Positions 1 through 19,073 of a stretch of 64,000 nt of DNA are shown one piece after another. Position numbers and translations under genes: made by a program. The DNA comes from a virus. Its lineage: Duplodnaviria > Heunggongvirae > Uroviricota > Caudoviricetes. A model generated the notes under the pieces. That model saw only the letters and a program-made list of their open reading frames with translations, did not search any database and was not told the origin of the DNA. Numbering within the stretch: position 1 is the first letter of the stretch; every line of letters starts with the position of its first letter. Location of the stretch: IMG/VR virus record IMGVR_UViG_3300042471_001635; one strand, 5' to 3'.

Positions 1-641
1 CACTCAAAGTTTTTCAAGACCTTCGGATGGTTACACATCCAATACCATTCATCCAAAAAGTCGATAGTTTTCTGTCCCGCGACAAAAATATTTGTTGTTC
101 TGTACCTTTGTCTAACATATTGGTTAATACCAAATAGTTCACAGGCGGGATGCTCTAACGTTGTACTTAAATCATCTCTACTATCAGCACCACCTCTAGT
201 ACCCACAAAAAGATAATCGTAAACACCTTCAGTGGCGTAAGGATAAACTTTATCGGTATCGTACAAATCGAAAACTCTATCAATGTACGGTGTTACAATC
301 ACATCACTATCAATATAAGCTATGGTTTCCGAATAATTCAATAATGCGTGTCGAGTCACATTTGGTCTTTGTATCAAAAGTTTGAATATTCTCTCATTTG
401 ACCTATTGATATAAAAATTAGAATCTGAGTCATGATACATGTTCCCACCATCCTCACCTAAATCACAATCCCATTTTATAGTTATAACGTTTTCGAAATC
501 TAACTTCAAATCACAGTTTAAAAAATAAACTATAACGGGTAAATCACTAAATTCACGAATTGATTTTACACAAGTTTTAACGATATCAAAATAGTTTTCA
601 TTTGCATAAAGAACGAATGATTTTTCGAATTTAACTTTCAT
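1..641 (-). CDS. Hypothetical protein, 5' part only (continues beyond window start); possible nucleotide-sugar glycosyltransferase-like
   Basis: Minus-strand ATG at 641-639, open reading frame to position 1 (MKVKFEKSFVLYANENYFDIVKTCVKSIREF...); absent from ORF track only because it is truncated by the window edge; sits in a glycan-enzyme cluster. Confidence 0.35.
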   Translation of the reverse strand, partial: MKVKFEKSFVLYANENYFDIVKTCVKSIREFSDLPVIVYFLNCDLKLDFENVITIKWDCDLGEDGGNMYHDSDSNFYINRSNERIFKLLIQRPNVTRHALLNYSETIAYIDSDVIVTPYIDRVFDLYDTDKVYPYATEGVYDYLFVGTRGGADSRDDLSTTLEHPACELFGINQYVRQRYRTTNIFVAGQKTIDFLDEWYWMCNHPKVLKNFE

Positions 642-644
642 AAT

Positions 645-1262
645 TTAGTAACTTTTTTTTACTGACCAAGTTCCAAACCATTCATTTGTCAACGTTAATT
701 CATATCCATAATCTTCACAAAACTCATCAACTGCAGGATTTACACCAAAAACACCGTGATAAAAATTTCCATTCCAAATATGTTTGTCTTTTTTATTTGG
801 TAAATAATTTGGGTCATTGTACCAATCTAAATCAATATAATCGTGACCAAGGATATACCCACCAATTTTCACTTTTGGAAACCATAATTTGATGTCCTGA
901 ACAACATAATCGTAAGCGTGATTTGCATCGATATATACAAAATCTAAAGAATGGTCGTTGAATATTTTTGCGGAAATTTCAGATGAGGCCCTAATCATTA
1001 CGGCTCTGTCTTCATATCCCTCAATGTTTTTCATCGCCTCCTCGTAAACATTTTCACTTTGAAGTAGATGATTACTTGAATCTATATACCCATCTTTTAG
1101 TCCTCTCCAAACATCTACCATGTAGAGTGTACCATTCCAATTTTGAATTATTTGTTTGGAGAAAGAACCCTTGAAGGTTCCAACTTCAACACCAACCCCG
1201 TTCGGAAACTGAGAACATATTTTTGACATCAATTCTACTCTGTTCAATCCATTTTTTTTCAT
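645..1262 (-). CDS. Class I SAM-dependent methyltransferase (TylF/MycF-like sugar O-methyltransferase family)
   Basis: 205 aa; motif I-like GVEVGTFKGSFS, downstream VYIDANHAYDYV and ILGHDY motifs typical of macrocin-O-MTase-like enzymes. Confidence 0.5.
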   Translation of the reverse strand: MKKNGLNRVELMSKICSQFPNGVGVEVGTFKGSFSKQIIQNWNGTLYMVDVWRGLKDGYIDSSNHLLQSENVYEEAMKNIEGYEDRAVMIRASSEISAKIFNDHSLDFVYIDANHAYDYVVQDIKLWFPKVKIGGYILGHDYIDLDWYNDPNYLPNKKDKHIWNGNFYHGVFGVNPAVDEFCEDYGYELTLTNEWFGTWSVKKSY

Positions 1263-1269
1263 ATGAAAA

Positions 1270-2214
1270 TTATATTTTTACTATTTCAATTATTTTTTTA
1301 AAAACTTGATTTACGTTAGGATGACAAAGAAATTCTTTTTTATTTTCTAAGCATCCAACCAAAGAAGGTATGCCTTTAATTGTATTCCAATATTTTACAC
1401 CATATTTCATATCAGATGCACAGGCTAGTTCACATTCACCTGAAATATAATGGTATTTGTAATTTTGTGTACCTTTTCTATAAGGGGCTCTCAGTTTGTA
1501 ATTAACAGAACTACCAAGTTGAAAAATATTTGCATCGGTGGTTCCTGCCAAATGTAACATACCCGAATCCATAGTAACCACCCCTAATGATTTTTGCATC
1601 AACCACCATGTTTGAGAAATATCCGCCTTGTTCAATAAATTTAAACCTAGATTTATTGGAAAATCAAATACAGGTTTTTGGACGTTGGAATTTCCAATCT
1701 CACTTGAGTTTTTACCAACAGACACGACTGAAATTCCAACATCATTGAGGAGAGAGGTTAATAAAACCCACTTATCATATGACCAAGTTCTTGAAGCCCA
1801 AGTCTGTACGGGATGAATTATTATAAAATCTTTTGGTAAATTTTCAATTTCTATAAATTTGTCAGGAATAAATTCCATCTCCATCTCGTTTGGTAAAAGC
1901 TGAAACCCTAAGCCAGCGGCATGAAATTGTCTTATATCGAATTGATTATGACGTAAAGAAATTCCAAATTTGTTTTCTACATTTGGTAAAAAACTATTTA
2001 GCATTTCATATCTATCCTCAAGTACCTCTCTGTTACTATTTTGGGTTGACCACAACTCACTAACAAAAGTATTGTTTTTGAAAATAATGGGATGGTGTGT
2101 AAGGACTGCAATCTTTTTACCATATGAGTAGTATAGTTTTTTTAATGTAGGGGTTGCACATATTGTGTCTCCCAATCCTCTTGACTCAGTTAAATCCAAA
2201 CAGACTTCACTCAT
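1270..2214 (-). CDS. Glycosyltransferase, GT9 (heptosyltransferase)-like
   Basis: 314 aa; C-terminal TMDSGMLHLAGTTDANIFQLGS resembles the GT9 DSGPMHLAAALG motif. Confidence 0.5.
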   Translation of the reverse strand: MSEVCLDLTESRGLGDTICATPTLKKLYYSYGKKIAVLTHHPIIFKNNTFVSELWSTQNSNREVLEDRYEMLNSFLPNVENKFGISLRHNQFDIRQFHAAGLGFQLLPNEMEMEFIPDKFIEIENLPKDFIIIHPVQTWASRTWSYDKWVLLTSLLNDVGISVVSVGKNSSEIGNSNVQKPVFDFPINLGLNLLNKADISQTWWLMQKSLGVVTMDSGMLHLAGTTDANIFQLGSSVNYKLRAPYRKGTQNYKYHYISGECELACASDMKYGVKYWNTIKGIPSLVGCLENKKEFLCHPNVNQVFKKIIEIVKI

Positions 2215-2276
2215 ATGAGAAAATTTAAATTTTTAATCCTGATTTACAAAAATAAAATTTAATTTAGTTTTTTCAT

Positions 2277-3203
2277 ATGGAAAGCCTAGCCAATGTGACC
2301 TCACTTTTCAAGTTTGATATTGTGGGTGATAAATATAAAATAACTTATCTCGGAAAGCCACCGATATATATAAATTTTTCGGTGAAACTGAAAGGTCTCA
2401 GTGTCCCTGTACAAACAATTAGGCACGAATATCAAACAAAAGGGGAATGGTTTATACCAAGTATTGATTATACGGGTTGTGCTATTTTGGAGGTAAGAAA
2501 CTATGAAACTAAGCAATACCTGTTCGATAAAGTTATAAACCCTGTGGTTAGTAAAAAAAGAAAAGAACAAAATATTATTTGTATTGGACTTAATAAGACA
2601 GGCACTAGTTCTTTCTCTGAATCCCTTCAAAAATTAGGATTTAGACTATCACCGGAAGGACTTAATTTTATGACTTGCGTTCAAGATGTACTTTTTGATG
2701 ATTTAAATTCTACATTTTCAATCTTGGAAAACGAGAGATATAATCTCTATGAAGACATGCCATATTCATTTCCATTACTTTACGAAAAAATTTACGAAAG
2801 AAGGCCTGAAGATGTTTTTGTTCTCACAGTAAGAAATGATGTCGAAACATGGATAAAATCTGTGATTAATTTTTATCCCTTACTCCAAAATAAAACAGAA
2901 AAAGAATGGGAAGACAAATCTTATATGAGATATGTGTGGAGTAATGAAAAAGACGATATTTTACTCAATAATCAATTTCCTTTATTAGATGCTTGGGGAA
3001 TAAAAGATACCACAAATTTGGAGTCAAAACTTAGGGAAATTTATAATACTCATAATCAAAGTGCCATAGAATTTTTTTCACGGAAAAAATCAAATTTCAT
3101 TGTAATCGATGTGTCAAAAAAGAACGAACTTAAAAGATTGTCTAATTGGTTGGGAATTGAAACAAATCAAAATGATTTTGATTGGGTAAACAAAAACAGT
3201 TAA
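2277..3203 (+). CDS. Sulfotransferase-family protein
   Basis: 308 aa; 5'-PSB-like P-loop IICIGLNKTGTSSF and 3'-PB-like LTVRNDVETWIKS (R-N-x-x-E/D...S) motifs of PAPS-dependent sulfotransferases. Confidence 0.5.
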   Translation: MESLANVTSLFKFDIVGDKYKITYLGKPPIYINFSVKLKGLSVPVQTIRHEYQTKGEWFIPSIDYTGCAILEVRNYETKQYLFDKVINPVVSKKRKEQNIICIGLNKTGTSSFSESLQKLGFRLSPEGLNFMTCVQDVLFDDLNSTFSILENERYNLYEDMPYSFPLLYEKIYERRPEDVFVLTVRNDVETWIKSVINFYPLLQNKTEKEWEDKSYMRYVWSNEKDDILLNNQFPLLDAWGIKDTTNLESKLREIYNTHNQSAIEFFSRKKSNFIVIDVSKKNELKRLSNWLGIETNQNDFDWVNKNS

Positions 3204-3489: not shown

Positions 3490-6400
3490 ATGGCAGGTTA
3501 TTATAATTTTTCAGGAACAAGTTGTACCGATGGACTAGACTATGAATTGTGGACCTTTTATCCACCAGGAGTAACAATTAGTATAGGTTCTGTTTTAAGC
3601 GGGGTTACGACTTTGGATTATTATACAGTAATTTCTACACCTGTAATTACTCTATCACAACCAGGTTTTGAAGTAGATGGAAACGTAGATTATGGAAGTT
3701 GTCCAGCAACTCCTACACCTACCGAAACACCCACAAATACTCCAACTCCGAGCGTAACCGAAAGTGAAACTCCAACTCAAACACCTACTCAAACTCCAAC
3801 TCCCACAACATATTGTCTTTGTAATTATTTCGACATGACTATAAGTCAAGCCGATTTGGATGCTGCCATTGGTAACATCACTTTCTTGAATAACACGGTT
3901 TATGTTCAATATCTTGATTGTTATGGAAATTTTCAAATAACAACATACTCATCTGCAGGTAGTTTCCCAAATACTTTCTGTGCAAGATATGTTCAAGCAA
4001 CATATTATTATGTGAGTGATACACCTGTTGTAGCTGGTACTTCATTCCCTACTGACACATTTAATGATTGTTGTCCGACACCAACACCAACTGAAACATC
4101 TACTCAGACCCCTACTGAAACACCATCCAATACTCCCACAGAAACCCCAACTCAGACACCTTCACAAACAACTAGCCAAACTCCAACTCAGACTGAAACG
4201 GCAACTCAAACTCCAACTGAGACGCCCACTCAAACCGCAACGCCATCTGCAACAGAAACGCCAACCCAAACTCCAACGGAAACTCCTACACAAACAGAGA
4301 CAGCAACACAAACTCCGACGGAAACTCCTACACAAACAGAAACACCTACACAAACCCCGACACCTGATAGTTCACCAACTCCAACACAAACTGAAACTCC
4401 GACAGAGACTCCTACTGAAACCCCAACTCAGACTGCAAGTGAAACACCTACTGAAACTCCAACGCAAACCGAGACGCCTACACAAACTCCAACGCCTAAT
4501 AGTACCCTAACACCTACTGCCACGGAGACTCCTACAGAAACTCCAACAGCGACCGAAACTCCAACGCAGACACCAAGTGATACGCCAACTCAAACTCCCA
4601 CTGAAACACCAACAGAAACTCCTACACAAACAGCTTCAGAAACTCCTACACAAACAGCCTCAGAAACTCCTACACAAACAGCTTCAGAAACTCCTACACA
4701 AACAGCTTCAGAAACTCCAACTGAGACGCCGACTCAAACTGCTACACCATCTACAACTCCAACGTTTGGGTTAACACCTACCTCAACAGAGACACAAACC
4801 CCTACTCAAACAGAGACCCCAACTCAGACCCCATCAAACACTTCTACTGAAACGCCAACACAAACAGAAACCCCAACAGAGACACCTACTGAAACTCCAA
4901 CTCAAACTGCGAGTGAAACACCAACTGAGACCCCAACTCAAACAGAAACGGCCACACAAACTCCGACACCTGATAGTACCCAAACACCGACTGCGACGGA
5001 GACTCCTACAGAAACTCCAACGGCGACCGAAACTCCTACACAAACCTCAACTCCAACACAAACACCTGGATTGACACCTACACAAACTACAACTCCAACT
5101 TTAACACCTGAGTTAGTCATTCAATTTGAGGAATGTGATTCAAACTTTGTATTTCGTTTTGCAGGTAGTCCGATGGCTTATCTCCCCGTTGATTCGGTTT
5201 ATTTGATTGAGGGTAGTTTGGATTTTTCGGGCTGTGCTACGGTTGTGGCATATACTTCAGAAGGTCCACTTTATAATTCTGCTGGAGTTACATTTACTGA
5301 AATTGATTACTGTGGTAATACGACTTACTGTCCAAGAACTGATAGAAAGGCTGCACAACTTGCAAGATGTAGGGATGGTCTGTTGAGTTATTTCATGGTG
5401 GATGTAGACACTGCATTCCAATATGGTGTTTATTTCTATCAAGGAGATTGTTGGAAATTTGTAAGATTTGATGGACCTGGTGGTCCATACCTTGGTTCAC
5501 CAAGTTATTTCAGCTGCGAAGATACTGTATGTATACCAACACCAACACCAACTGTAACGCCAAGAGAAACACCAACACAAACTCCAACACCATCCCCAAC
5601 TCCAACTGCTTGTCCTTATTCAACTTTTTGTTTTAGAACAACTCAACCTGACCTTGAGGACTTCAGTGGAAATTATACTGAGTATGGCTACGTATATAAT
5701 GATGAACTAACTTATTCAGGAGATGGAATTAACATTGGAGTAATTTATTATTTCACATCTTCAACTGAGAGTTATTGGTGTTTAAGCACTTCTTTGGGTG
5801 GTTCATGTGTACTTAGAGGTTCATCACCTTGTAATTCGAACTGTCCTGACATCAGTGGAAACTTCTTCACTTCAGGTGTTTGTCCTACACCTACACCTTC
5901 ACCATCTGCCTGCACAATTGACTTTGTTGCATATTTTGATTGTGATTGGGAACCTGTCCCGACGCCGACCTTGACTGTCACAGATGTTGATTTTGATGTA
6001 ACAAGCATTGGACTAACTCCAACACCAACCTCTACAAATCCATGTTTAGGTAAGGCTGTGGAATTCCAATTATATGAGTCTACACCTACACCAACACCAT
6101 CAAACACCGCAACACCAACTAGCTCAAGAGTTTATGAACCAGTTGGAGGTAAAGTGTCGTTCGAAATCTTTGATTCACCAATCTCTTGTCCTGAAGTGGC
6201 TATTCTCAAAGAATGCACTCAAGGAACAGATTTCTACTTCTGCGCACAAAATCAATTGGTATTCAACGGTCTTGTTGTGGAACCTGGTACAATAATGAAT
6301 GCAATTATCAACGGACAGTATGTTTGCGTTGAATATATTGGTAATCGTTCTAACACTTCATCAAATTCTGTAATCACCTCTATTATCAACCTTTATTCAG

Positions 6401-7365
6401 ATTGTCAGAGCTGTGTTGTTTTTCCAACACCAACAGTTACTCTCACTCCTACTCAAACTCAAACGCCATCTAATACTGCAACACCAACTCAAACCGCGAC
6501 AGTAACACCAACTACTACAACAACAAGAACACCAGATTTGACCCCTGACCCAACAACATCAATAACACCGACAAATACGGCTTCAAACACTCCTACACCG
6601 TCTTATACTCAAACACCAACCCCAACCAATTTGCAAAAGTATTATGTGTTTACCCTCTGTCCTAATCAAGAAAGTACAATAAGATTTAATAGATTGTTCC
6701 AAACTTCACCACTCACGGTTCCAATCCTTCCAACCAAAGTATTCACCGATGACAATGGTTTGTGCTGGACATATGAAGGATTCACAACAGCAATTGTTCC
6801 AAATCCAAATTATGTTGACTTGATTTGGCAAGACAATTATTTCGGTACCGCGGGAGAATTGCAATCGGATACTTGTGACGAGTGCCTCACAACATCTACA
6901 AAAATAAATCTTCAACTTCAAGTTTTCCCAAGCTTTGAGGGATATATCCCAAGTGGGGCAACAACAACATTTGATAGTCCAAACTTTGGCGTCTCTTTCT
7001 ATGATGGAATTGACCCGAATAATGGAACATTATTTTATCCACCATCTGATGTGTTGAACGACGGTGTAATTGTATTTAATTTGATTACCTTAATTGGTTC
7101 AGACCCTTATTCAATTTCTAAGTTAGCGGTGGGAGTAATTCACGGAAGATTTTTCTCAAAGGCAAATGTTATTGTTAAAGCATATATTAATGGAGTTTTA
7201 GCAAGCCAAGTAACACAACTTATTGAAGGAAATAGTGAAAACTTCGGAATTCAAATTGGAGGTTTGTTTGAAGAAATAAACTGTGTATCGAACCCGTGTT
7301 TGAGAGAATTAAATAGAGGAGACATATTACTTATAACAGTAGAACAAAATTCAGAAATAGGATAA
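3490..7365 (+). CDS. Giant Thr/Pro-rich (PTQT/PTET repeat) mucin-like fibre/adhesin protein with Cys-rich globular modules
   Basis: 1291 aa ORF; long (T-P-T-Q/E-T)n linkers alternating with Cys-containing domains; other-frame and antisense ORFs inside it are repeat artefacts. Confidence 0.8.
4615..4712 (+). repeat. Tandem 24-nt repeat (~4 copies; encodes ETPTQTAS)
   Basis: gaaactcctacacaaacagcttca reiterated. Confidence 0.7.
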
Positions 7366-7581
7366 ATGGCACTTACAATAACCATATCATCAATAACTGG
7401 CACGTCACCTTACAATGTATATCTCTGTGAGGGAGATGGAACTGGATGTTTTTATATAAATCAGATTTCATCCACACCCTACACATTTGACATACCAGCA
7501 CCCTATGATACATCAACATCATATATGGTAAAAATAGTAGATGCTGTAGGTTGTATTATAACTTCCACTCAATCATTATGA
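7366..7581 (+). CDS. Small protein consisting of a single copy of the ~65-aa N-terminal domain of the downstream fibre protein
   Basis: 71 aa; ...YNVYLCEGDGTGCFYINQISSTPYTFDIPAPYD... paralogous to the N-terminus of the 7578 ORF (...NIYYCDSLSASCVFVSSVATFPFVFDVPAPYD...); start abuts the stop of the 3490 ORF. Confidence 0.5.
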   Translation: MALTITISSITGTSPYNVYLCEGDGTGCFYINQISSTPYTFDIPAPYDTSTSYMVKIVDAVGCIITSTQSL

Positions 7582-9131
7582 GCCAACAAGTAACCATAAC
7601 ATCAGTAACCGCAAACACACCAGTGAACATCTATTATTGTGATTCACTCAGTGCTTCCTGTGTTTTTGTTTCTAGTGTGGCTACATTCCCATTTGTATTT
7701 GACGTGCCAGCACCATACGACGAACAAAATTTTGTAATAAAAATTGAAGATACCTCAGGATTTGAAGATTATAAAACAATCGACATCACTCCTACCTCCA
7801 CAAGTCAACCCACCACAACTCCAACTAATACTCCGAGCCAAACTCCTACTCAGACACCAACGAATACACCCTCAAATACTACAACACCATCTCAAACGGG
7901 GACACCAACTCAAACACCTTCTACATCAATTGAGGTATATCCCCCAATTCAACCGAGTCCAAATGTTGTTCAACACCCTGTAGGACAGAGTGTTGTTTGT
8001 GAAGCGGCAAATGCGTGTGATGATACCTTGACAACTAGAGTTCTATACAATTATGAAGCAGATGCTTCGGTGCAACCTGTGATAGGTATTACAATTTATT
8101 CTGCTTATTTCAGTTCAGCTTTATACGACCCTTATAATGGCAACAACGAGTGGATTTTGATGAGTTGGATTAATGGAACCTATGCCGTACAGATTACACC
8201 ACAGGGAACAATCAAAAGTTTTGTTCTTTGTCAAGAAAATCCAACTCCTTCACCAACAAAAACGCCAACTACTACACCCACTAATACACCAACTCAAACT
8301 CAAACTCAGACACAAACACCAACGCAAACAGCAACACCTTCAACAACAGCAACGATAGGTCTAACCCCAACATCAACTGAAACACCAAGTCAAACCCCAA
8401 CCCAAACTCCATCTACAACAACAACACTAACTGCAACACCAACCCAAACACCATCTCAAACTCAAACGCAAACCCAAACTCCATCTACAACAACAACACT
8501 AACTGCAACACCAACCCAAACACCATCTCAAACTCAAACGCAAACCCAAACTCCTTCTAATACAGAAACACCGACACAAACTCCAACACCTTCAACTACT
8601 CCAATTTGTTGTAATTGCTTTGCATTGACAAACGAAGGAGACCCAACCAATACAAATACTACAAATTATACAGATTGTGATGGTAATCCACAATCTATTA
8701 TAAATAAAATACAATTTGCAACTGCAACTTACTTCTGTGCAGTTCCAGGGTCAATTACAACATCTGGAGGTTTGACCGTGCTCCAAGTTCCTGATGACCT
8801 ACTCACTTGTGGTGGTTCTTGTCAACCATGTCCAACTCCTACACAAACCCCATCACAAACGGAAACACAAACCCAAACACCAACACCTTCACCAACACCA
8901 AATACTGGTTGTTATTCTTTAACAAATGAAGGAGACCCCACAGAAACCAATCTGACCACTTACACAGATTGTGATGGAAATCCACAATCAATTGTAAATA
9001 AAGCGTTCGAGTCAGGAGCAACTTACTTCTGTGCTCTTCCTGGTACAATCACATTTTCATCAGGTTTGACAGTAATAATGGTTGATGATAATTTAGGAAC
9101 ATGTGGATATAGTTGTGGAGGTTGTACATAA
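7578..9131 (+). CDS. Thr/Pro-rich repeat fibre protein with two paralogous Cys-rich C-terminal modules
   Basis: ORF track starts at a TTG (7551); the ATG at 7578 overlaps the upstream stop (ATGA); PTQT linkers; duplicated CxxCxALTNEGDPT...YTDCDGNPQSI modules. Confidence 0.75.
   Translation: MSQQVTITSVTANTPVNIYYCDSLSASCVFVSSVATFPFVFDVPAPYDEQNFVIKIEDTSGFEDYKTIDITPTSTSQPTTTPTNTPSQTPTQTPTNTPSNTTTPSQTGTPTQTPSTSIEVYPPIQPSPNVVQHPVGQSVVCEAANACDDTLTTRVLYNYEADASVQPVIGITIYSAYFSSALYDPYNGNNEWILMSWINGTYAVQITPQGTIKSFVLCQENPTPSPTKTPTTTPTNTPTQTQTQTQTPTQTATPSTTATIGLTPTSTETPSQTPTQTPSTTTTLTATPTQTPSQTQTQTQTPSTTTTLTATPTQTPSQTQTQTQTPSNTETPTQTPTPSTTPICCNCFALTNEGDPTNTNTTNYTDCDGNPQSIINKIQFATATYFCAVPGSITTSGGLTVLQVPDDLLTCGGSCQPCPTPTQTPSQTETQTQTPTPSPTPNTGCYSLTNEGDPTETNLTTYTDCDGNPQSIVNKAFESGATYFCALPGTITFSSGLTVIMVDDNLGTCGYSCGGCT
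8400..8545 (+). repeat. Tandem 72-nt repeat (2 copies) inside a PT-linker
   Basis: Encodes [24 protein letters not shown] twice. Confidence 0.6.
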
Positions 9132-9163
9132 AAATCTGAAAAATATACTTATAGAATATATAA

Positions 9164-11362
9164 ATGTCTTGTAATTGTTACCATATCGAAATCCCACAAT
9201 CCGTACAAACCAACGGTGTTAATGAAATATATCTTTGGCAAAAACTTTGTAACTTATACTATATTGCTGGAGTTTGGAACGGCTCTCTTTTGACTTATAT
9301 GGATGGAACTACCGCGGTTTATGACCTGTGTTTGGACAACGAATATGGTATTGAATTTAGTTATGGGTTTAGTGGACCCAAATTCACAACATCTGAGGTT
9401 CCTGAAATTACAGTAAATATTTTGGGTACTTGTACGGTAATTGGAGATTGTTATACACCACCAACACCCACTCAAACACAAACCCAAACTCAAACGCCAT
9501 CGCCGACTCTTACATTAACAGCATCTCCAACCCAAACACCAAGCCAAACTCAGACACCATCACAAACCGGCACACCACCACCAACACCTACTCAAACACA
9601 AACCCAAACTCAAACACCTTCACCCACAAAAGTTGTCTGTGGCATAGGAGTAACATCTCAAAGTTTTTATTATTATGATTGTTGTGGAAATCTGATATCA
9701 TCTACTGGTGCAGGTCAAGAAGTGTCTTTTGATTACACTAAACCTTACCAAGGAGTTACAAAATTGAACCTCTCTACTTCCTCAGTTTGTCCAACTCCAA
9801 CGCAGACTCAGACACCGAGCCAAACTCCAAGTCAAACCCAAACTCCAACACAAACACCATCTCAAACTCAAACGCAAACCCAAACGCCAACATCCACCCC
9901 TGTACCTACGTGTTCTGCTCAACCAAATTTAGCCAACGAGTGTGAAGTTTTCACTCTATTCGATATGGGAGTTCAATGTAACTTGATTAAAGAGCCAACT
10001 GTCGGAAGATTTGATGGTATATTATCAGTTAATGTGACAGGTGGAACAGCACCTTATACTTTCTATTGGAATACTGGTGAAAGGACTCAAACCATTTCTA
10101 ACATACCTTATGGAAGGTACACAGTTCTTGTTGTGGATTATTATGGAGATTATTCCGCCACAACTGCGTGTAATATATTGGCTCCAACACCAACAGCTAC
10201 TACCACACCAACAATCACACCCACACCGTCAACAACACCACCTAACGCTCCACCGTTGTGTTTAAGATTTGTTTCACCTCCGAGTTTTGGAGGGTCTGGT
10301 GGCTCTGCTATGTATAAGGAATTACCTCTGACTTTCGTGACCTCTGGAAACCAAAACGGGAAACCAACGTGGTATAATTATTCAAAAAATCTTTCGATTA
10401 TTTGGAATGACTCAGTAACTCCTAACAGATGGGATATAACAAATTGGCCTTACGGAGGAACACCTATTTCAACAAACCAAGGAACAATACCAGATACAGG
10501 ATGGCAGTTCTTGGGTACACCGGGTGTTTATTCCCAAATTGTTTCATCAAGGGGTCAATGTCCTTCGGTTTCTCCATTAGTTTTTGAATATCAAATAACA
10601 CCAGCTTCTTGTCCAGGAGTTTGTAACGGAAGTTTGGTGGTTGTGCCAGGAGGAGGAATGACACCATTCAGCTACTCGGTTGATGGCGTTAATTTCCAAA
10701 GTTCAAATATTTTCAACAACTTGTGTCCTTCTACTTTCGGTCTTACAATAAAAGATGCTGTAAATCAAACTTATAGTCAATCCATAACAATTGGTTCAGG
10801 AACAGCAACTACTTTGCAATTGAAACCTGAAATCATTACAAGTAATGGACCTGTCGCAAGTGGACCAAGTGTACAGACAGTAACATGGAAAATAACTTCT
10901 AATCCACCAATACCTGCTGGTGTTTCTTTAACAGGTCAAATCTTGTTCGAAATTTCACAAACAGAACAAGGTCCGACTAGCAGTTCAGGTCCAGCGACAA
11001 CTTATTTAATCAATGCATCTAACGTTGCAATTCAAAATAATTCTACATTAACTTTGTTGACATCTCCTATCATAACTCAAAGTGTCCCGAGTACTTGTAA
11101 TTCAGCTCTTGTTTCAGCTTCGAATGAAAATTACTCACAATCAACTCTTGTTACTTTAGGAAATGGATTTATTTTGACAGGTACAACTGTTTCATCATTG
11201 AATATTACGGGTGGAATTACTCAATTTAACTGTTCAACTACAGCTAAACAAACAATTTCGTTGACCCTTTCAAATTTCAAAGTTTTAGGAAATCCGTGTT
11301 ACACGGTACAAACACAGAATTTGGTATTGGTCAATAATCATACTTACACAATTTCAAGTTAG
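9164..11362 (+). CDS. Thr/Pro-rich fibre/adhesin protein with SprB-like repeat domains
   Basis: 732 aa; GGTAPYTFYWNTGERTQTISNIPYGRYTVLVVDYYGDYSATTAC and CNGSLVVVPGGGMTPFSYSVDG match the SprB-repeat pattern of Flavobacterium gliding adhesins; PTQTQT linkers. Confidence 0.8.
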   Translation: MSCNCYHIEIPQSVQTNGVNEIYLWQKLCNLYYIAGVWNGSLLTYMDGTTAVYDLCLDNEYGIEFSYGFSGPKFTTSEVPEITVNILGTCTVIGDCYTPPTPTQTQTQTQTPSPTLTLTASPTQTPSQTQTPSQTGTPPPTPTQTQTQTQTPSPTKVVCGIGVTSQSFYYYDCCGNLISSTGAGQEVSFDYTKPYQGVTKLNLSTSSVCPTPTQTQTPSQTPSQTQTPTQTPSQTQTQTQTPTSTPVPTCSAQPNLANECEVFTLFDMGVQCNLIKEPTVGRFDGILSVNVTGGTAPYTFYWNTGERTQTISNIPYGRYTVLVVDYYGDYSATTACNILAPTPTATTTPTITPTPSTTPPNAPPLCLRFVSPPSFGGSGGSAMYKELPLTFVTSGNQNGKPTWYNYSKNLSIIWNDSVTPNRWDITNWPYGGTPISTNQGTIPDTGWQFLGTPGVYSQIVSSRGQCPSVSPLVFEYQITPASCPGVCNGSLVVVPGGGMTPFSYSVDGVNFQSSNIFNNLCPSTFGLTIKDAVNQTYSQSITIGSGTATTLQLKPEIITSNGPVASGPSVQTVTWKITSNPPIPAGVSLTGQILFEISQTEQGPTSSSGPATTYLINASNVAIQNNSTLTLLTSPIITQSVPSTCNSALVSASNENYSQSTLVTLGNGFILTGTTVSSLNITGGITQFNCSTTAKQTISLTLSNFKVLGNPCYTVQTQNLVLVNNHTYTISS

Positions 11363-13652: not shown

Positions 13653-14255
13653 ATGGGACGTAAACAAATCAAAGAGGATTCACCGAAGGTCCTCGGTCTA
13701 GATATTTCCACAAAAACAATCGGATGGGCACTTTTCGATATCGGGACAAAAAATTTATTGGAACTCACCCATGTTTCTCCAAGACCGAAAGATGTTGAAA
13801 ATAAAATTGAGGAATTAATTCTCAAAGCAATTATTTTTAGAAACAAGTTGGAACAATACGTTGGACTTGGAATACAAAAGGTTGTAATCGAAGAACCGTT
13901 ACTTAACTCAAATAACATTTGGACCGTAAGCACACTTATGAGATATAATACTCTGATTTGCAAAGAAGTGTATGATGTTTTGGGTATAGTTCCTGAATTT
14001 ATTTCAACTTATAACTCAAGAAAATTTGCATTCCCGCACTTGGTTCAAAAAAATGAAAAAGGAAAGTTTGTATTATTTGGCGGTTTTTCAAAAGACATAG
14101 ACAAAAAAGTTGTAATTTGGGAACTTGTTGCAAAAAGGGAACCACAAATAACTTGGCAATACACCAAAAATAATACCCTGAAAAAAGAAAATTACGACCA
14201 AACAGATGCCTATTGTGCAGTCTTAGGATACATGAAATCACAAGACCTTTGGTAA
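13653..14255 (+). CDS. RuvC-like Holliday-junction resolvase
   Basis: 200 aa; N-terminal VLGLDISTKTIGWALFD (RuvC first-Asp motif) and C-terminal DAYCAVLGY. Confidence 0.5.
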   Translation: MGRKQIKEDSPKVLGLDISTKTIGWALFDIGTKNLLELTHVSPRPKDVENKIEELILKAIIFRNKLEQYVGLGIQKVVIEEPLLNSNNIWTVSTLMRYNTLICKEVYDVLGIVPEFISTYNSRKFAFPHLVQKNEKGKFVLFGGFSKDIDKKVVIWELVAKREPQITWQYTKNNTLKKENYDQTDAYCAVLGYMKSQDLW

Positions 14256-14262
14256 AATTTTT

Positions 14263-14293
14263 TTTGTGAATTACAAAACATATCTTATCTTTG
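14263..14293 (+). promoter_or_regulatory. Bacteroidetes-type promoter (-33 TTTG, 19-nt spacer, -7 TAtcTTTG) ending 4 nt before the ATG
   Basis: tttg(14263-66)...tatctttg(14286-93) then taat ATG(14298). Confidence 0.45.
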
Positions 14294-14297
14294 TAAT

Positions 14298-14687
14298 ATG
14301 TTAAGATGTGAAAAATCAAACGAAACTCAATTTCTCAAGTCAAAAATTCTGAAGTTTTCTCAAGAATTGAAAATCAAGGAACAAAACATTGAAGGAAAAA
14401 TTTTTATTGAAAACCTCAGATTTTACAAGACCTCTTTTTCTTACAACTCAAAATTTCCTTACACTTTAGAGGTAGACGTTTCTTTCCAAGGAAAAATCAG
14501 AGCAAGAGGAACTTCAAAAGGTTTGGAGTGGTTTTCTTCCAAAATTTTAACCCAAAATGGATTTTCTAAAATCAAAATCAATAGATTTATAAGAAAATCT
14601 ATTGTAGACAAAATACAAAACCGCCTATCATATTTTGGTTTAGGATTGAATGGTTACTATGAAATAAAAAGAATAAATTGGAAATAA
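14298..14687 (+). CDS. Hypothetical protein
   Basis: 129 aa ORF, own promoter-like element. Confidence 0.5.
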   Translation: MLRCEKSNETQFLKSKILKFSQELKIKEQNIEGKIFIENLRFYKTSFSYNSKFPYTLEVDVSFQGKIRARGTSKGLEWFSSKILTQNGFSKIKINRFIRKSIVDKIQNRLSYFGLGLNGYYEIKRINWK

Positions 14688-14688
14688 T

Positions 14689-14874
14689 ATGGAAATTTTG
14701 AAACTTGTTGGAATTGTTTGGCTATGTTTACTATTCTTGACCTGTTTAGGAATGGTCGTTGGTGTAATAATTGAGAGAAAGGTCGATGAGTCCCACCCAA
14801 TAAAAAAATGGTGGAGGAAACATATTTTGGCTCCTGACCCTGACGATAATAATTGGAAAAACTTTGCGGGTTAA
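14689..14874 (+). CDS. Small membrane protein
   Basis: 61 aa, hydrophobic N-terminus LVGIVWLCLLFLTCLGMVVGVII. Confidence 0.4.
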   Translation: MEILKLVGIVWLCLLFLTCLGMVVGVIIERKVDESHPIKKWWRKHILAPDPDDNNWKNFAG

Positions 14875-15788
14875 TGCAAGACGAAGTAGAAGTACTTATT
14901 GAACTTTTGAGTGATGTTTTAGGAGACCCCAAAAATCACTATGAATCGAAAGCACAAATCTCATTCGATTGTCCTGTCTGTGCGGCAGAAAAAGGATTGG
15001 AAAACGGTGATGGTAAAGGGAACTTCGAAGTCAATTATTCAAGGCACGTTTACAAGTGTTGGGCTTGTGGAGATACATTAGGAACACACGGACCACTAGG
15101 TAAATTGTTTGACAAGTGGGGAACCAAGAAACAGAAAAAACTTTACGATTTAGTTAAACCCGAAGAACTCAAAATCGAAGACAAAAAGAAAGTTTATCTA
15201 AGACTTCCCGAAGGTTACACCCAATTCAAAGATTCAAATTCAAGATTTATTCCTCACAGAGAGGCTCACAGTTATTTAAAGGACAGAGGAATTACCGATG
15301 AGATGATTGAGAAATATAAAATTGGATATACTGTCAAAGGGGATTTTGCATACAGAGTTATTGTTCCTTCCTATAACTCCCAAGGTAATTTGAATTATTT
15401 TGTTGCGAGGGCTTGGGTTCCCAAAAAAATGAAATACAAAAACCCAACCGCTCAAAAAGACGAGATTATTTTCAATGAAGGTTTAATTGATTGGAGTAAA
15501 GATATCTTTCTTTGTGAAGGTGTCTTTGATAGTTTTTTCTTAGACAATCCTTTGGTCATGCTCGGTAAGAAGTTATCAAAACTAGCATTTACTACAATTT
15601 ACGAGAAGGCTCAGGGAAATATAATTGTCTGCACGGATGGGGATGCTTGGGAAGATGGTTTGAAGATTTATCACGAACTGAACGGTGGAAGGCTCTATAA
15701 CAAAATTAAAATTGTTAAATTGCCAAAAGATAAGGATATTTGTGACTTGAAAGGAAACATTTCCGAATTTTATCACGAAATAAAATAA
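14853..15788 (+). CDS. DNA primase (T4 gp61-like; zinc ribbon + TOPRIM)
   Basis: CPVCAAEKG...CWACGD zinc ribbon; TOPRIM-like LCEGVFDSFF and CTDGDAWEDG; start probably the ATG at 14874 overlapping the upstream stop (TAATG). Confidence 0.65.
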   Translation: MEKLCGLMQDEVEVLIELLSDVLGDPKNHYESKAQISFDCPVCAAEKGLENGDGKGNFEVNYSRHVYKCWACGDTLGTHGPLGKLFDKWGTKKQKKLYDLVKPEELKIEDKKKVYLRLPEGYTQFKDSNSRFIPHREAHSYLKDRGITDEMIEKYKIGYTVKGDFAYRVIVPSYNSQGNLNYFVARAWVPKKMKYKNPTAQKDEIIFNEGLIDWSKDIFLCEGVFDSFFLDNPLVMLGKKLSKLAFTTIYEKAQGNIIVCTDGDAWEDGLKIYHELNGGRLYNKIKIVKLPKDKDICDLKGNISEFYHEIK

Positions 15789-15791
15789 TAC

Positions 15792-16634
15792 ATGGACTTA
15801 AAACTTGTTGCTTCTGAGATTAGAGAATTAATCAAAAAACGTCAAGACGAATTAGGATTAGTTTTCGAAGAGGAAAAACACATCTATACTATGAATGGTC
15901 GTAGGGACTATCCATCAGTTTCCAAAGTTTTGAAAAAATTCTATAAGGCATTTCCCACTGAAGAAGCCGCTTATAACAAAGCAGGTGGTGACCCTGAAAG
16001 ACAAAAACAATTGATGGAAGAATGGGCGGCTGCGGGTAGTTATTCAACTAACCTTGGAAGTAGAGTTCACTTTGTTTTAGAAGATGAGGTTGTCAAAAAA
16101 AATGGTTCCTACAAAGATTTAAGAAAACCAATTTTTGATTGTGACTTAACCCAATTAATGACAAGCGATAAAATGATTGTTGCCGGTAAAAGATATTTGG
16201 AGTTACTTGAGCAGAGAAAGGTTGTTTTATTAGATACTGAAATGGTTTTAGGTGACCCTGACCTTGGATATACAGGTCAACCCGATAAGGTATGGTTGAC
16301 GATGAATAAGGCGGGAACTGAATTCGGGTTTTTAATTACTGATTGGAAAACAAACAAACCCAAAAACTTCCAAGAGACCTCTTATACTGAAAGAATGTAT
16401 AAACCTTTTGATAGTTTACCGAACACAGCTTTAGGACACTATTACGTCCAATTACCTCTATATGGTAAACTATTGGTAAAGATGCTTCAAGGTACAAAGT
16501 ATGAGAATTTAAAACTCTATGGATGTATTATTGCACATTTGAGAGAAGATACACAGTTCGAAGAATTCAGAGTTCCAAAAAATGTTATTGATACTGTAAT
16601 GAATATGGACGTAAGTAAGTACATTAAGAAGTAA
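15792..16634 (+). CDS. Hypothetical protein (possible PD-(D/E)XK-like nuclease)
   Basis: 280 aa; D...GQPDKVWL...ITDWKTNK weakly suggests D-(E/D)xK. Confidence 0.5.
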   Translation: MDLKLVASEIRELIKKRQDELGLVFEEEKHIYTMNGRRDYPSVSKVLKKFYKAFPTEEAAYNKAGGDPERQKQLMEEWAAAGSYSTNLGSRVHFVLEDEVVKKNGSYKDLRKPIFDCDLTQLMTSDKMIVAGKRYLELLEQRKVVLLDTEMVLGDPDLGYTGQPDKVWLTMNKAGTEFGFLITDWKTNKPKNFQETSYTERMYKPFDSLPNTALGHYYVQLPLYGKLLVKMLQGTKYENLKLYGCIIAHLREDTQFEEFRVPKNVIDTVMNMDVSKYIKK

Positions 16635-16684
16635 CTCAGTTGAATTTGGTGTAAATTTTTACTATATTTAAACAAACTATTTTT

Positions 16685-16927
16685 ATGGACCAACAAGACT
16701 TATTGGCACCAAGGATTAACATCCGAGAGTGTCCCACAATTAAATGTGAGAAATGCGGAAGTGTATATTTCAAAGAAGCCCTTTACCTCAAATGGGTTTC
16801 AAAACTTCAAGGAGCGTCTCATGACCAGCCAGTTCCCTTTCCCGTTTATATGTGTATTGAGTGTAATCATGTAAACAAAGGGTTCAACCCATTAGAAGAA
16901 GAAAAAATTGTAGAAAGTGATAAATAA
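16685..16927 (+). CDS. Zinc-ribbon protein
   Basis: 80 aa with two CxxC pairs (CEKCGS...CIECNH). Confidence 0.5.
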   Translation: MDQQDLLAPRINIRECPTIKCEKCGSVYFKEALYLKWVSKLQGASHDQPVPFPVYMCIECNHVNKGFNPLEEEKIVESDK

Positions 16928-17696: not shown

Positions 17697-17697
17697 A

Positions 17698-18513: not shown

Positions 18514-18518
18514 AACAA

Positions 18519-18866: not shown

Positions 18867-18871
18867 AAATT

Positions 18872-19072
18872 ATGATAGTAGACGCAGAATTCAAATTGAC
18901 CATTAAAATTAATGATATGGTCGTATCAAACAACATTTCAGGTTTTGAACTCAAAAGCAAAATCATGGAAGAAGGCGAAAAGAGGGTAAGACTTCTCTGT
19001 TCAGGTTTCCTTCAGGACCCTCAAGGGAAAGTAATCCATAAAGACGTGACTTATGTAATTAAAGAAGATTAA
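18872..19072 (+). CDS. Hypothetical protein
   Basis: 66 aa ORF tightly packed in the operon. Confidence 0.4.
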   Translation: MIVDAEFKLTIKINDMVVSNNISGFELKSKIMEEGEKRVRLLCSGFLQDPQGKVIHKDVTYVIKED

Positions 19073-19073
19073 A

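Follow-up and report, generated by a model that had tools for sequence, protein, structure and literature searches.

Organization of the cassette

The DNA analyzed here (the window; 64,000 nucleotides) derives from an uncultured freshwater jumbo phage, most likely with a Bacteroidota host. The three closest MAG contigs were binned as Bacteroidota, and SprB and T9SS-tail domains were present in relatives. At positions 3490 to 11362 lie four co-oriented, tightly packed genes on the plus strand, and a conserved fifth gene closes the cassette.

3490-7365, plus strand, ORF1, 1291 aa
7366-7581, plus strand, ORF2, 71 aa, a stand-alone single domain without a linker
7578-9131, plus strand, ORF3, 517 aa, counted from the ATG that shares ATGA with the ORF2 stop
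9164-11362, plus strand, ORF4, 732 aa
11401-13650, plus strand, ORF5, 749 aa

Linker residues numbered 567, 225, and 136 in ORF1, ORF3, and ORF4 (44, 44, and 19% of the protein), with Thr contents of 23, 24, and 17% and Pro contents of 12, 11, and 9%, respectively, and each globular segment of these proteins had 2 to 8 Cys residues. An earlier note on this DNA had described four Thr/Pro-rich modular proteins with mucin-like spacers between Cys-rich modules. That design was borne out and the coordinates and ORFs were exact, but ORF2 has no linker, and there are therefore three Thr/Pro-linker proteins rather than four. With four qualifications, the observation as a whole was confirmed. The C terminus of ORF1 differed from that of a 98.5%-identical contig by 27 synonymous and 3 nonsynonymous changes, indicating that the cassette genes are genuine and subject to purifying selection.

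ORF5 comprises an N-terminal domain, a remnant linker (residues 154 to 164), and a large C-terminal part. It had 405 relatives in IMG/VR and over 3135 homologues in databases, none of which was named, and it matched nothing in Pfam, PHROG, or the PDB. Its homologues in some loci have 31 to 75 linker residues and 17 to 20 Cys, and ORF5 is probably a fifth cassette member. A search of ORF5 for the N-terminal domain of P2 gpH (PF12571) was negative. No trimerization or chaperone domain (e.g., Peptidase_S74) was found in the cassette proteins. Collagen-like fibres encoded elsewhere in the window do have such a domain.

Modules of ORF1 to ORF4

The linker proteins were divided into the following modules, which belong to more than 12 unrelated families.

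3490-3711, plus strand, ORF1 module 1a
3808-4077, plus strand, ORF1 module 1b
5107-5535, plus strand, ORF1 module 1c
5611-5889, plus strand, ORF1 module 1d
5899-6099, plus strand, ORF1 module 1e
6112-6432, plus strand, ORF1 module 1f
6619-7362, plus strand, ORF1 module 1g
7578-7799, plus strand, ORF3 module 3a, conserved N terminus
7917-8249, plus strand, ORF3 module 3b
8601-8834, plus strand, ORF3 module 3c, swappable C-terminal tip
8901-9128, plus strand, ORF3 module 3d, swappable C-terminal tip
9164-9460, plus strand, ORF4 module 4a
9617-9799, plus strand, ORF4 module 4b
9905-10189, plus strand, ORF4 module 4c, SprB repeat
10247-10603, plus strand, ORF4 module 4d
10604-10843, plus strand, ORF4 module 4e, SprB repeat
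10844-11359, plus strand, ORF4 module 4f, C-terminal domain

None of the 465 homologues of the ORF1 core carried a Pfam domain. AlphaFold predicted modules 1c, 1d, and 1f as confident all-beta structures (pLDDT of ~90) separated by low-confidence or disordered linkers, and the Cys positions of the core were invariant among 51 homologues. Since the confident ORF1 modules matched no known fold, a binding function is proposed for them by analogy only. The many conserved Cys residues need explaining in proteins made in a reducing cytoplasm; they may form disulfides once the cell has lysed, or they may bind metal.

Pfam recognized SprB in two stretches of ORF4, with 33.9 bits where the gathering score is 28, and the corresponding modules 4c and 4e were related to each other (hhalign probability of 97%). 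Neither Pfam nor hhalign found SprB in the modules of ORF1, ORF2, or ORF3, and the SprB-type repeats of the earlier note are thus confined to ORF4. The sole structural label was a weak PHROG match over the SprB repeat. The C-terminal half of ORF4 had only 13 homologues, the weaker of which included bacterial SprB proteins, one also with PF13585; module 4f was poorly conserved and present in 3 loci.

In ORF3, modules 3c and 3d were 68% identical to each other. Module 3a was the best-conserved module (58 to 74% identity across loci) and occupied almost always residues 1 to 73 in 116 cluster representatives. ORF2 was 35% identical to the first 62 aa of ORF3 (BLASTP E value of 1e-17; hhalign probability of 100%), in agreement with the suggestion that it duplicates the N-terminal domain of the next protein. 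It is, however, an ancient stand-alone paralogue of 3a, kept as a separate gene in most relatives, and not a recent duplicate: 43 of the 55 distinct genes of this type in relatives were 67 to 113 codons long. ORF2 was identical (100%) in the related locus L081. Its weak Ig-like matches, to Pfam Kre9_KNH (E value of 0.009) and to repeat proteins with LapA, Y_Y_Y, or fn3 domains, suggest that it is probably an Ig/FN3-like beta-sandwich.

Thr spacers and tandem repeats

The spacers and repeats that bear on linker length are as follows.

4063-5118, plus strand, hypervariable (X-Thr/Ser)n spacer of ORF1, 352 aa (residues 192 to 543)
4615-4710, plus strand, four 24-nt tandem units encoding ETPTQTAS four times, 1 mismatch in 96 nt
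8403-8546, plus strand, two 72-nt tandem units of 24 aa each, in the second, hypervariable ORF3 linker
9800-9904, plus strand, 4b-4c spacer of ORF4, 35 aa, a length-locked linker

Thr or Ser filled 167 of the 176 odd positions of the 352-aa spacer and 10 of the 176 even ones. The linkers consist of (X-Thr/Ser)n dipeptides in strict, in-phase arrays, a feature that goes beyond the earlier note. The near-perfect repeats reported there are real. The 24-nt array (TRF period of 24/48) had one unit fewer in the aligned L081 and is a recent expansion. The 72-nt units were identical at 72/72 positions (TRF, 96% over 2.4 copies); L081 has a different, lineage-specific array in this linker (42 nt, 3.4 copies), and the related locus L082 has the same two copies.

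The idea of length-variable fibres held for some of the linkers. The 352-aa spacer was rearranged relative to L081, and the corresponding 1b-to-1c spacing ranged from 37 to 343 aa across loci. The core linkers, in contrast, are exactly length-conserved among relatives, which is also new. The 4b-to-4c spacing was 35 aa in 44 of 45 loci, with exactly 50 aa from Cys to Cys in 24/24 distinct sequences despite varying sequence, and the 3a-to-3b spacing was 35 or 39 aa in 43 loci with diverged sequences.

Bacterial cellulases and scaffoldins have extended (P/X-T)n linkers between independently folding modules, linked to domain shuffling. The cassette spacers share this composition, extended conformation, intermodule position, and shuffling, but the former belong to secreted enzymes, whereas the cassette spacers are phage encoded, reach 352 aa, and in several cases are exactly length-conserved.

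Module exchange among relatives

The cassette was compared with 80 IMG/VR loci from uncultured phages, probably of Bacteroidota hosts, on contigs of up to 321 kb. In most of these loci, the same module order preceded the ORF5 homologue, and the cassettes contained about 100 module families. Among the modules of relatives are domains known from adhesion or binding, namely, SprB, Laminin_G_3, RCC1, other beta-propellers, DUF285, PKD, SdrD_B, and Ig_J.

Relative to L081, ORF4 and the downstream genes were 93.6% identical at the DNA level with 2 gaps, and ORF1 to ORF3 were 81% identical with 115 gaps. The N-terminal module of ORF1 and the C-terminal modules of ORF3 (3c and 3d) were replaced in L081, while the ORF3 N terminus was identical. 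Two other loci, L096 and L097, differed from each other by the same kind of ORF3 tip swap. A 2.35-kb block (7078-9427) was 100% identical to L082 and lay between diverged flanks that had 30 and 16 differences, a pattern suggestive of recent cassette exchange. The divergence pattern and tip swapping in these alignments are typical of a receptor-binding locus.

The hypervariability might alternatively reflect an arms race unrelated to adsorption, the proteins being nonvirion factors such as lysis-released or intracellular decoys, matrix or aggregation factors, or scaffolds. The cassette is flanked by glycan-related genes on one side and DNA replication/repair genes on the other, with no recognizable structural module around it in the window; its proteins match no known virion protein fold and have neither a signal peptide nor a fibre-assembly chaperone domain, all in favor of such a reading. 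We nonetheless consider this unlikely. Phage receptor-binding proteins classically combine a conserved N-terminal domain with exchangeable C-terminal tips, as seen here, and the lectin-like, Ig_J, PKD, and propeller modules of relatives are typical of phage fibres and adhesins. Furthermore, the fixed-length spacers suggest a defined assembly geometry, and spacers potentially longer than 100 nm would be odd for an intracellular factor.

Glycan genes beside the cassette

The following genes precede ORF1.

3-641, minus strand, glycosyltransferase-like protein, N-terminal 213 aa with a YIDSDV (DxD-type) motif; the gene extends beyond the left window end
645-1262, minus strand, methyltransferase (Methyltransf_24, Pfam E value of 6e-17)
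1270-2214, minus strand, family-9 glycosyltransferase (GT9; heptosyltransferase family; PF01075, 39 bits against a cutoff of 22), divergent from the cassette
2277-3203, plus strand, sulfotransferase (Sulfotransfer_4, Pfam E value of 8e-15), between the GT9 gene and ORF1

The first product had no Pfam match; its homologues adjoin the cassette in L081, L014, L018, L036, L053, and L054, and in L081 lie inside a 1717-aa multi-glycosyltransferase protein. L041, L030, and L002 have a methyltransferase homologue upstream of the cassette. In at least 13 loci, and in L081, a GT9 homologue immediately precedes the ORF1 homologue; the window GT9 scored far below the NCBIfam cutoffs for LPS heptosyltransferases and may belong to either a protein-modifying or a lipopolysaccharide-modifying subgroup. 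The sulfotransferase had no homologue in the 80 loci, and relatives carry other sulfotransferase families upstream of the cassette. The main classes of upstream genes in relatives were GT9, PF11397 GlcNAc-transferases, hexapeptide acyltransferases, FkbM methyltransferases, DegT aminotransferases, GT2, GT29, and sulfotransferases. PF11397 genes were absent from the window and its closest relatives. They lay directly upstream of the cassette or one gene off in L056, L057, L067, L069, L074, and L076, and genes of this family adjoined it directly in seven related phage loci.

The PTVT spacer in Dictyostelium PsA is a mucin-type O-glycoprotein spacer, and we take PF11397 to correspond to CAZy GT60. 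GT60 enzymes, which are polypeptide alpha-GlcNAc-transferases, begin mucin-type O-glycosylation of Thr-rich tracts in protists (PMC8724618). As in that system, the cassette has long every-second-Thr tracts between globular domains, and PF11397-family genes adjoin it in related phage loci. Unlike that system, the window has GT9 and an unclassified DxD-type transferase instead of PF11397, and the putative modification would occur in the bacterial cytoplasm rather than the Golgi.

The earlier note had attributed linker glycosylation to the general O-glycosylation system of Bacteroidota, which is restricted to noncytoplasmic proteins and uses a D-(S/T)-hydrophobic motif (PMC12871550). ORF1 to ORF4 had neither signal-peptide nor transmembrane features, and the motif occurred twice in 928 linker residues, making this host route unlikely. 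It is highly improbable that the proteins are homologues of SprB-family gliding adhesins modified by this route. The likely Bacteroidota host and the bona fide SprB repeats of modules 4c and 4e would fit such an origin, but only two repeats are present, in one of four proteins, rather than the long array of Flavobacterium johnsoniae SprB (PF13573); moreover, the cassette is phage encoded and no T9SS C-terminal domain was seen. Bacteria are known to O-glycosylate adhesins and flagellins step by step in the cytoplasm (PMC12871550). With a glycosyltransferase island next to the cassette, modification in the cytoplasm by enzymes of the phage itself is better supported than the host system, and, judged from gene adjacency, the Thr tracts are probably O-glycosylated in this way.

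The glycan genes could instead have a different role, for instance in hypermodifying DNA or in altering polysaccharide on the host surface, with the proteins acting as virion fibres or adhesins whose X-Thr/Pro spacers are unglycosylated and intrinsically stiff, in the manner of the Pro-Thr boxes of bacterial cellulases. Exact length conservation suits a purely geometric spacer for which a glycan is unnecessary, GT9 is best known for lipopolysaccharide heptosylation, and the island content, highly variable among relatives, is as expected of genes aimed at variable host surfaces. Phage glycan islands can also serve DNA or host-surface modification, and glycosyltransferases of phages have often been assigned a role in modifying DNA or serotype (PMC12619734). 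This explanation is possible but rather doubtful, as a Thr or Ser at almost every other position along hundreds of residues exceeds stiffness needs and the X-Thr pattern matches mucin-type transferase acceptors. In addition, the gene immediately before that of the first linker protein encodes a PF11397-type polypeptide GlcNAc-transferase in several relatives, and the island stays beside the cassette across deep divergence (down to ~48% ORF5 identity).

Proposed function

We therefore favor, at a probability of roughly 0.5, the reading that ORF1 to ORF4, probably with ORF5, are virion adhesins or receptor-binding fibres whose spacers are probably O-glycosylated by phage enzymes. The proteins would be displayed on the virion surface as beads on a string, in which small all-beta modules rich in Cys, including the two of SprB type, may act as binding or docking units and alternating (X-Thr)n tracts as extended spacers keeping them apart. 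Some spacers would be fixed-length rulers, and others would lengthen or shorten via tandem duplication. The conserved N-terminal domains (3a and its paralogue ORF2) may dock the proteins onto the particle. Transferases from the adjacent island would O-glycosylate the Thr tracts in the host cytoplasm, yielding stiff, protease-resistant, mucin-like stalks.

T-even distal fibre adhesins and P2/Mu-type fibres have conserved N-terminal anchors and recombining C-terminal tips. The cassette likewise has a conserved 3a, distal modules swapped between near-identical genomes, and far greater divergence than its flanks, with blocks of recent exchange. Unlike those loci, it lacks a detected fibre fold, trimerization motif, or chaperone, and it has monomer-like small Cys-rich beta domains with low-complexity spacers rather than a continuous shaft. 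Phages have been proposed to adhere to mucus through Ig-like capsid decoration proteins. The Ig-like decoration proteins T4 Hoc and T5 pb10 display small beta-sandwich-like modules on the particle, as the cassette proteins would. An ORF4 SprB module matched T5 pb10 weakly (E value of 0.034, not significant), and ORF2/3a weakly resembled Ig/FN3-type repeats, likewise without significance. The cassette architecture is far larger and more modular, and any capsid binding is putative.

Giant viruses carry glycosylated fibrils, and there, as proposed here, virus-encoded glycosyltransferases would decorate exposed virion proteins. The same holds for mycobacteriophages, in which phage-encoded virion glycosylation is known, the glycans being attached where capsid and tail-tube subunits carry short extensions at the C terminus (Freeman et al. 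2023, via PMC12619734). The putative acceptors of the cassette differ in being dedicated proteins with hundreds of X-Thr repeats. No cultured-phage matches to the cassette proteins were found. As probable sugar-coated attachment fibres, they would be a type of phage protein without an earlier description. Recombination between strains exchanges their terminal modules and would thereby alter binding specificity.

Organization of the cassette

An earlier note on this DNA had placed four consecutive mucin-like fibre genes at 3490-11362, and the coordinates of all four ORFs proved exact. They lie on the plus strand and are tightly packed, with gaps of 32 nt between ORF3 and ORF4 and of 38 nt between ORF4 and the next gene, ORF5, which probably belongs to the same cassette.

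Genes of the cassette and of the adjoining glycan island (window coordinates, strand, product)
3-641, minus strand, DxD-type glycosyltransferase-like gene that runs off the window
645-1262, methyltransferase
1270-2214, GT9 glycosyltransferase
2277-3203, plus strand, Sulfotransfer_4 sulfotransferase, between GT9 and ORF1
3490-7365, plus strand, ORF1, 1291 aa
7366-7581, plus strand, ORF2, 71 aa, without linker
7578-9131, plus strand, ORF3, 517 aa
9164-11362, plus strand, ORF4, 732 aa
11401-13650, plus strand, ORF5, next gene after ORF4, with an 11-residue linker remnant

Three of the four proteins were Thr/Pro-rich as predicted, ORF1, ORF3 and ORF4 containing 17-24% Thr and 9-12% Pro with linkers making up 44%, 44% and 19% of their respective lengths, but the prediction did not hold for ORF2, in which the linker is absent. 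Globular segments (modules, named by ORF number and a letter in N-to-C order) of 60-250 aa, each containing 2-8 Cys, lie between the linkers. Over the whole 64-kb window, this type of linker is confined to the cassette genes and the 11-residue remnant in ORF5. The reported duplication was also borne out, ORF2 being homologous to the N-terminal domain of ORF3 (35% identity, E value of 1e-17). Of 55 distinct cases of this type (2a), 43 were stand-alone open frames of 67-113 codons; elsewhere the module formed the N terminus of a longer protein.

The stop codon of ORF1 (TAA) directly abuts the ATG of ORF2, in frame, at window positions 7363-7368 and likewise in L081, a close relative of the window, while the stop of ORF2 and the start of ORF3 overlap as ATGA (7578-7581). 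Readthrough or frameshifting that would join the ORFs was considered and rejected, since the ORF1-ORF2 phase was lost in one relative (L002) and, apparently, in a second (L004), and no slippery heptamer was found before the ORF2/ORF3 overlap. With the in-frame arrangement not kept in relatives and no slippery site present, the junctions look like translational coupling rather than recoding. Scans for sigma-70 promoters and terminators gave no enrichment above shuffles and no internal terminator, and the Bacteroidota -7 motif TANNTTTG was absent upstream of ORF1.

Modules and their relatives

In most of the 80 related loci that were fetched, two to four linker-bearing, Cys-rich genes lay directly upstream of an ORF5 homologue on the same strand, with the shared module order 1b-1c-1d-1e-1f / 2a / 3a-3b / 4b-4c-4d-4e / ORF5. 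Across the loci, genes encoded 111-1870 aa and contained 25-757 linker residues each, and the terminal modules 1a, 1g, 3c/3d, 4a and 4f were present in just 0-9 loci. Because many of the loci are near-duplicates, locus counts overstate independence; distinct sequences were counted for the Cys-to-Cys spacing, the core-linker check and the 2a-type genes.

The 576 distinct globular segments fell into 102 BLAST clusters. A Pfam scan of 148 segment representatives left most of them without any match, the families found being SprB (10), RCC1, DUF285, DUF5122 propellers, Laminin_G_3, SdrD_B, NHL, PKD and Ig_J. A module of one relative matched Por_Secre_tail, the Bacteroidota-specific C-terminal sorting domain of the T9SS (E value of 1.4e-5), a match suggestive of gene flow from surface proteins of the host. 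A distant homologue of ORF5 (31% identity) was also observed in L098 (PLXT01000115.1), a contig of 170 kb assigned to a Methanobacterium MAG but probably a mis-binned large phage; the three large proteins encoded before it are rich in Cys (18-26 Cys) and poor in Pro/Thr linker residues, an arrangement that may be a version of the cassette with few linkers.

When profiles of the module families, assembled from the relatives, were compared with one another, only three related pairs emerged, 2a/3a, 3c/3d and 4c/4e, so that the window holds at least 12 unrelated module types. A "CxC...DCxGN" superfamily of 1b, 3c, 3d, 4a and 4b, spotted by eye, was not supported (hhalign probabilities of ≤22%). 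The pair 4c/4e represents two SprB repeats (hhalign probability of 97%), and SprB-type repeats, noted earlier for the cassette, were confirmed in two stretches of ORF4 (Pfam PF13573, 33.9 bits against a gathering score of 28) but had no match in ORF1, ORF2 or ORF3. The long array typical of SprB adhesins was absent, the two ORF4 repeats being split by the unrelated module 4d. A simple heuristic, as distinct from a dedicated signal-peptide predictor, found no basic/hydrophobic N terminus and no transmembrane-like segment in ORF1-4, and Pfam gave no match to the T9SS sorting domains Por_Secre_tail or CHU_C in these proteins. The cassette contains SprB-type domains but, in both repeat array and export signals, fails to qualify as an SprB adhesin.

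An AlphaFold model of the ORF1 core (residues 540-981, 51-sequence alignment) predicted modules 1c, 1d and 1f to be confident all-beta domains with a pLDDT of about 90, and linkers with a pLDDT below 50, consistent with beads on a string. Cys positions were invariant or nearly so across the alignment. The three domains had no match to solved or predicted folds of known function. For module 3a/ORF2, 116 cluster representatives were found among 1.84 billion proteins, nearly all at residues 1-73. The few multi-repeat matches were adhesin-type proteins with LapA, Y_Y_Y or fn3 domains (E values of 2e-6 to 1e-3), so an Ig/FN3-like beta-sandwich is a likely fold of 3a/ORF2. Weak Pfam matches toward the Ig-like type, both below their cut-offs, were to Kre9_KNH (E value of 0.009) and DUF7060 (E value of 0.0015), and the SprB module of ORF4 had a weak match to the decoration protein pb10 (E value of 0.034).

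Phase and length of the spacers

The linkers contain 36-44% Thr and 19-24% Pro, and every long one is an (X-Thr/Ser)n dipeptide array in constant phase; in the 352-aa tract of ORF1, Thr or Ser occupies 167 of 176 odd positions versus 10 of 176 even positions. Like mucins, these proteins have long Ser/Thr/Pro-rich repeat domains. The tandem repeats reported within the linkers were real and very young, the four 24-nt copies at 4615-4710 showing one base difference in total and the two 72-nt units at 8403-8546 being identical. Where the window has 72 nt × 2, L081 has its own array of 42 nt × 3.4.

Two classes of linker were distinguished across the related genomes. In core linkers, the sequence drifts and the length is exact: across 43 loci, 3a and 3b are separated by 35 aa, or by 39 aa in the subclade of the window; 4b to 4c is 35 aa in 44 of 45 loci, and 1c to 1d is 21-25 aa in 31 of 34 loci. 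In an independent regular-expression count, the distance between the final Cys of 4b and the SprB module's first Cys was exactly 50 residues in 24 of 24 distinct sequences. Hypervariable linkers, in which the young tandem arrays are located, include the 1b-to-1c spacing of 37-343 aa. The suggestion of length-variable fibres thus applies to the hypervariable class but not to the core linkers, and we infer that the spacers include rulers as well as stalks of adjustable length. If an extended rise of about 0.3 nm per residue is assumed, 35 aa would reach about 11 nm and 352 aa about 100 nm.

Mosaicism and a proposed role as virion fibres

Comparison of the window with L081 showed 93.6% DNA identity with 2 gaps over 12.2 kb for ORF4 and everything downstream, and 81% identity with 115 gaps for ORF1-ORF3. 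ORF2 was 100% identical and the C-terminal ~750 aa of ORF1 about 97% identical, while module 1b of ORF1 was replaced and its long linker rearranged. The L081 ORF3 is identical for 59 aa and then divergent, ending in one different Cys module instead of two. Likewise, two contigs of one metagenome bin (L096 and L097) share an identical 3a-3b followed by different linkers and tips. ORF3 therefore has the layout of a receptor-binding protein, in which 3a is nearly always N-terminal and 58-74% conserved and the C-terminal modules are swapped. Against L082 (Ga0164293_10060735), another close relative, a 2.35-kb block at window 7078-9427 covering ORF2, ORF3 and the start of ORF4 was 100% identical, all 46 differences lying outside it (30 and 16 in the two flanks), with 27 synonymous versus 3 nonsynonymous changes in the ORF1 flank. 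This points to a very recent horizontal exchange of the ORF2-ORF3 cassette, and the mosaic pattern is what a recombining specificity locus kept under purifying selection should show.

As the best-supported reading, we propose, with a probability of roughly one-half, that ORF1-4 are virion-surface adhesin or receptor-binding fibres. The conserved N-terminal module 3a would dock on the particle, with ORF2 as its stalk-less paralogue; the small Cys-stabilised modules would bind ligands, the X-Thr spacers would set the distances, and the terminal modules would be exchanged by recombination. Their place on the virion, their role in binding, their glycosylation and the chemistry of their conserved Cys residues are all inferred.

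The cassette behaves like phage receptor-binding loci, yet it fails the tests for recognised tail-fibre families. No Pfam match to the fibre/attachment domains PF12571 (Phage_tail_fib) or Peptidase_S74 was found in ORF1-5. ORF5 has 405 relatives in IMG/VR, on contigs of up to 321 kb, and its homologues in the protein collection number more than 3135, none of them named; its AlphaFold model (38-sequence alignment, all ≥67% identical) had a pLDDT of 45 and was unusable. Two colinear motifs of ORF5, at residues 17-38 (GRRQIS..FQIGD) and 712-736 (YVTEIGLYDSNYNLIVISKL), resemble the N-terminal attachment domain of the P2 tail fibre gpH, as though that domain had been split by an insertion of roughly 650 aa. 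A P2 gpH-type N-terminal domain (motifs GRR..GD and EIGLYD..LIVISKL) was not supported: the pairwise BLAST E value was 0.045, an N+C chimera of ORF5 gave no Pfam match to PF12571 (197 bits for the gpH control), and the hhalign probability against PF12571 was 3-5%. Sequence searches of the PDB with ORF5, the ORF5 profile, GT9 and the ORF4 C terminus returned nothing significant, and DNA and protein searches of cultured phage records with the ORF1 core, ORF4 and ORF5 gave no match.

Directly downstream of the cassette (13653-21633, plus strand) are genes for a RuvC-like resolvase, a DnaG-type primase, an SbcD-like metallophosphatase and an SbcC-like ATPase, and with this replication/repair block as its neighbor the cassette is not in a classical structural module. 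That position has to be set beside the receptor-binding layout of ORF3 and its swapped tips in weighing whether the cassette products are instead non-virion proteins, which we consider improbable. At 39334-47043 (plus strand), the window also encodes three consecutive proteins (895, 819 and 853 aa) with long collagen triple-helix repeats and a C-terminal Peptidase_S74 chaperone domain, by these features classic phage fibre/spike proteins; they account for the dense 9/18/63-nt tandem repeats there, and the phage thus carries a second, unrelated set of repetitive fibres.

Clues to the host point to Bacteroidota. They include the SprB repeats and the T9SS tail domain in cassette modules, weak ORF4 matches to bacterial SprB-repeat proteins, one of them also with PF13585, and the binning of the three closest MAG contigs as Ferruginibacter and "Bacteroides." In habitat and predicted host, the clade plausibly corresponds to the "moraphages," large freshwater phages with predicted Bacteroidota hosts and four core glycosyltransferase groups (PMC12619734), or to the bS21-encoding freshwater phages of up to 331 kb, also with predicted Bacteroidota (Bacteroidetes) hosts (PMC9723584). 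No bS21-like ORF was found within the window.

The glycan island and possible glycosylation of the spacers

In at least 13 loci, as well as in L081, the GT9 gene has the divergent position that it has in the window. In L081 it adjoins a 1717-aa multidomain protein (1-2515, minus strand) with Methyltransf_21, pyruvyl transferase and Glycos_transf_1 domains and a faint match to GT25; one part of this protein is homologous to the truncated gene at 3-641 of the window. The Sulfotransfer_4 gene at 2277-3203 had no homologue in any of the 80 loci searched, and some relatives have members of other sulfotransferase families (Sulfotransfer_1, Sulfotransfer_3) upstream of the cassette. A phage bearing sulfated glycans would be unusual. 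In a scan of 84 distinct ORFs, taken clade-wide from the 3.5 kb that precede cassettes, glycan-related enzymes dominated: GT9 (7), PF11397 "GlcNAc" transferases (6), hexapeptide acyltransferases (5), FkbM methyltransferases (5) and DegT aminotransferases (3), with GT2, GT29, sulfotransferases and sugar kinases also present.

In L056, L057, L067, L069, L074 and L076 (e.g., L076 3783-5009), the PF11397 genes (~230 bits) directly precede the gene for the first linker protein or are separated from it by a single gene, and a further copy lies about 4.9 kb upstream in L058. PF11397, which we take to be CAZy GT60, is the GlcNAc-transferase family of protist mucin-type and Skp1 glycosylation. Polypeptide alpha-GlcNAc-transferases of GT60 start mucin-type O-glycosylation in protists (PMC8724618). 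A PF11397 gene is absent from the window and its nearest relatives; the candidate transferases of the window itself are GT9 and an unclassified DxD-type enzyme.

To our knowledge, phage-encoded protein O-glycosylation has so far been documented only in mycobacteriophages. The earlier note had attributed glycosylation of the linkers to the general O-glycosylation system of the host, which acts on non-cytoplasmic proteins only, at a D-(S/T)-hydrophobic motif (PMC12871550). The sequon D-(S/T)-(A/I/L/V/M/T) occurs seven times in ORF1-4 and just twice within the 928 linker residues, and since the motif is nearly absent from the linkers and the heuristic found no signal-peptide or transmembrane features, the host route is unlikely. 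The fuller proposal of host-glycosylated homologues of SprB-type adhesins, in which the two SprB repeats of ORF4 are a correct element, has very little left to recommend it.

Given the adjoining glycan island and the known precedents, stepwise O-glycosylation in the cytoplasm by phage enzymes is a more plausible route than the host system, on grounds of adjacency only. The precedents are the cytoplasmic stepwise O-glycosylation of bacterial adhesins and flagellins (PMC12871550) and, as cited in PMC12619734, the glycosylation of mycobacteriophage virions (Freeman et al. 2023). We tentatively suggest, at well below even odds, that the clade runs its own mucin-type O-glycosylation, in which dedicated virion proteins with (X-Thr)n tracts of up to ~350 residues would become bottle-brush stalks, made in the host cytoplasm by phage transferases (GT9-type and, in some lineages, GT60-type polypeptide GlcNAc-transferases, known otherwise from protists), with some stalks serving as exact molecular rulers for exchangeable binding modules. 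It is also conceivable, though we regard it as unlikely, that these tracts stay bare and act as rigid spacers, and that the enzymes of the glycan island act on some other target.

Implications

Pro-Thr spacers, Ig-like adhesion domains of phages and glycosylation of phage virions are each known separately, and full-text literature searches found no description of mucin-like phage fibres. Several features are new here. Pro-Thr spacers, phage adhesion-type domains and a glycosylation context occur in combination; the (X-Thr)n phase is strict; a low-complexity tract keeps its length exactly; the repertoire of modules is large; and the cassette stays linked to a glycosyltransferase island, one with a family that initiates mucin-type glycosylation among its members. 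The spacers raise the biophysical question of why a low-complexity (X-Thr)n tract keeps its exact length while its sequence drifts.

If the cassette encodes virion fibres, it probably determines host range and adhesion in an abundant phage clade without a cultured member, one with more than 3000 ORF5 homologues in public metagenomes and likely to infect freshwater Bacteroidota, and it would offer a large natural collection of ~100 small Cys-rich binding modules, most of them unclassified. The tie to the glycosyltransferase island, including the protist mucin-initiating family, makes phage-encoded protein O-glycosylation directly testable, and if the clade does run its own mucin-type system, a mucin-like glycoprotein system would for the first time have been described for a prokaryotic virus.
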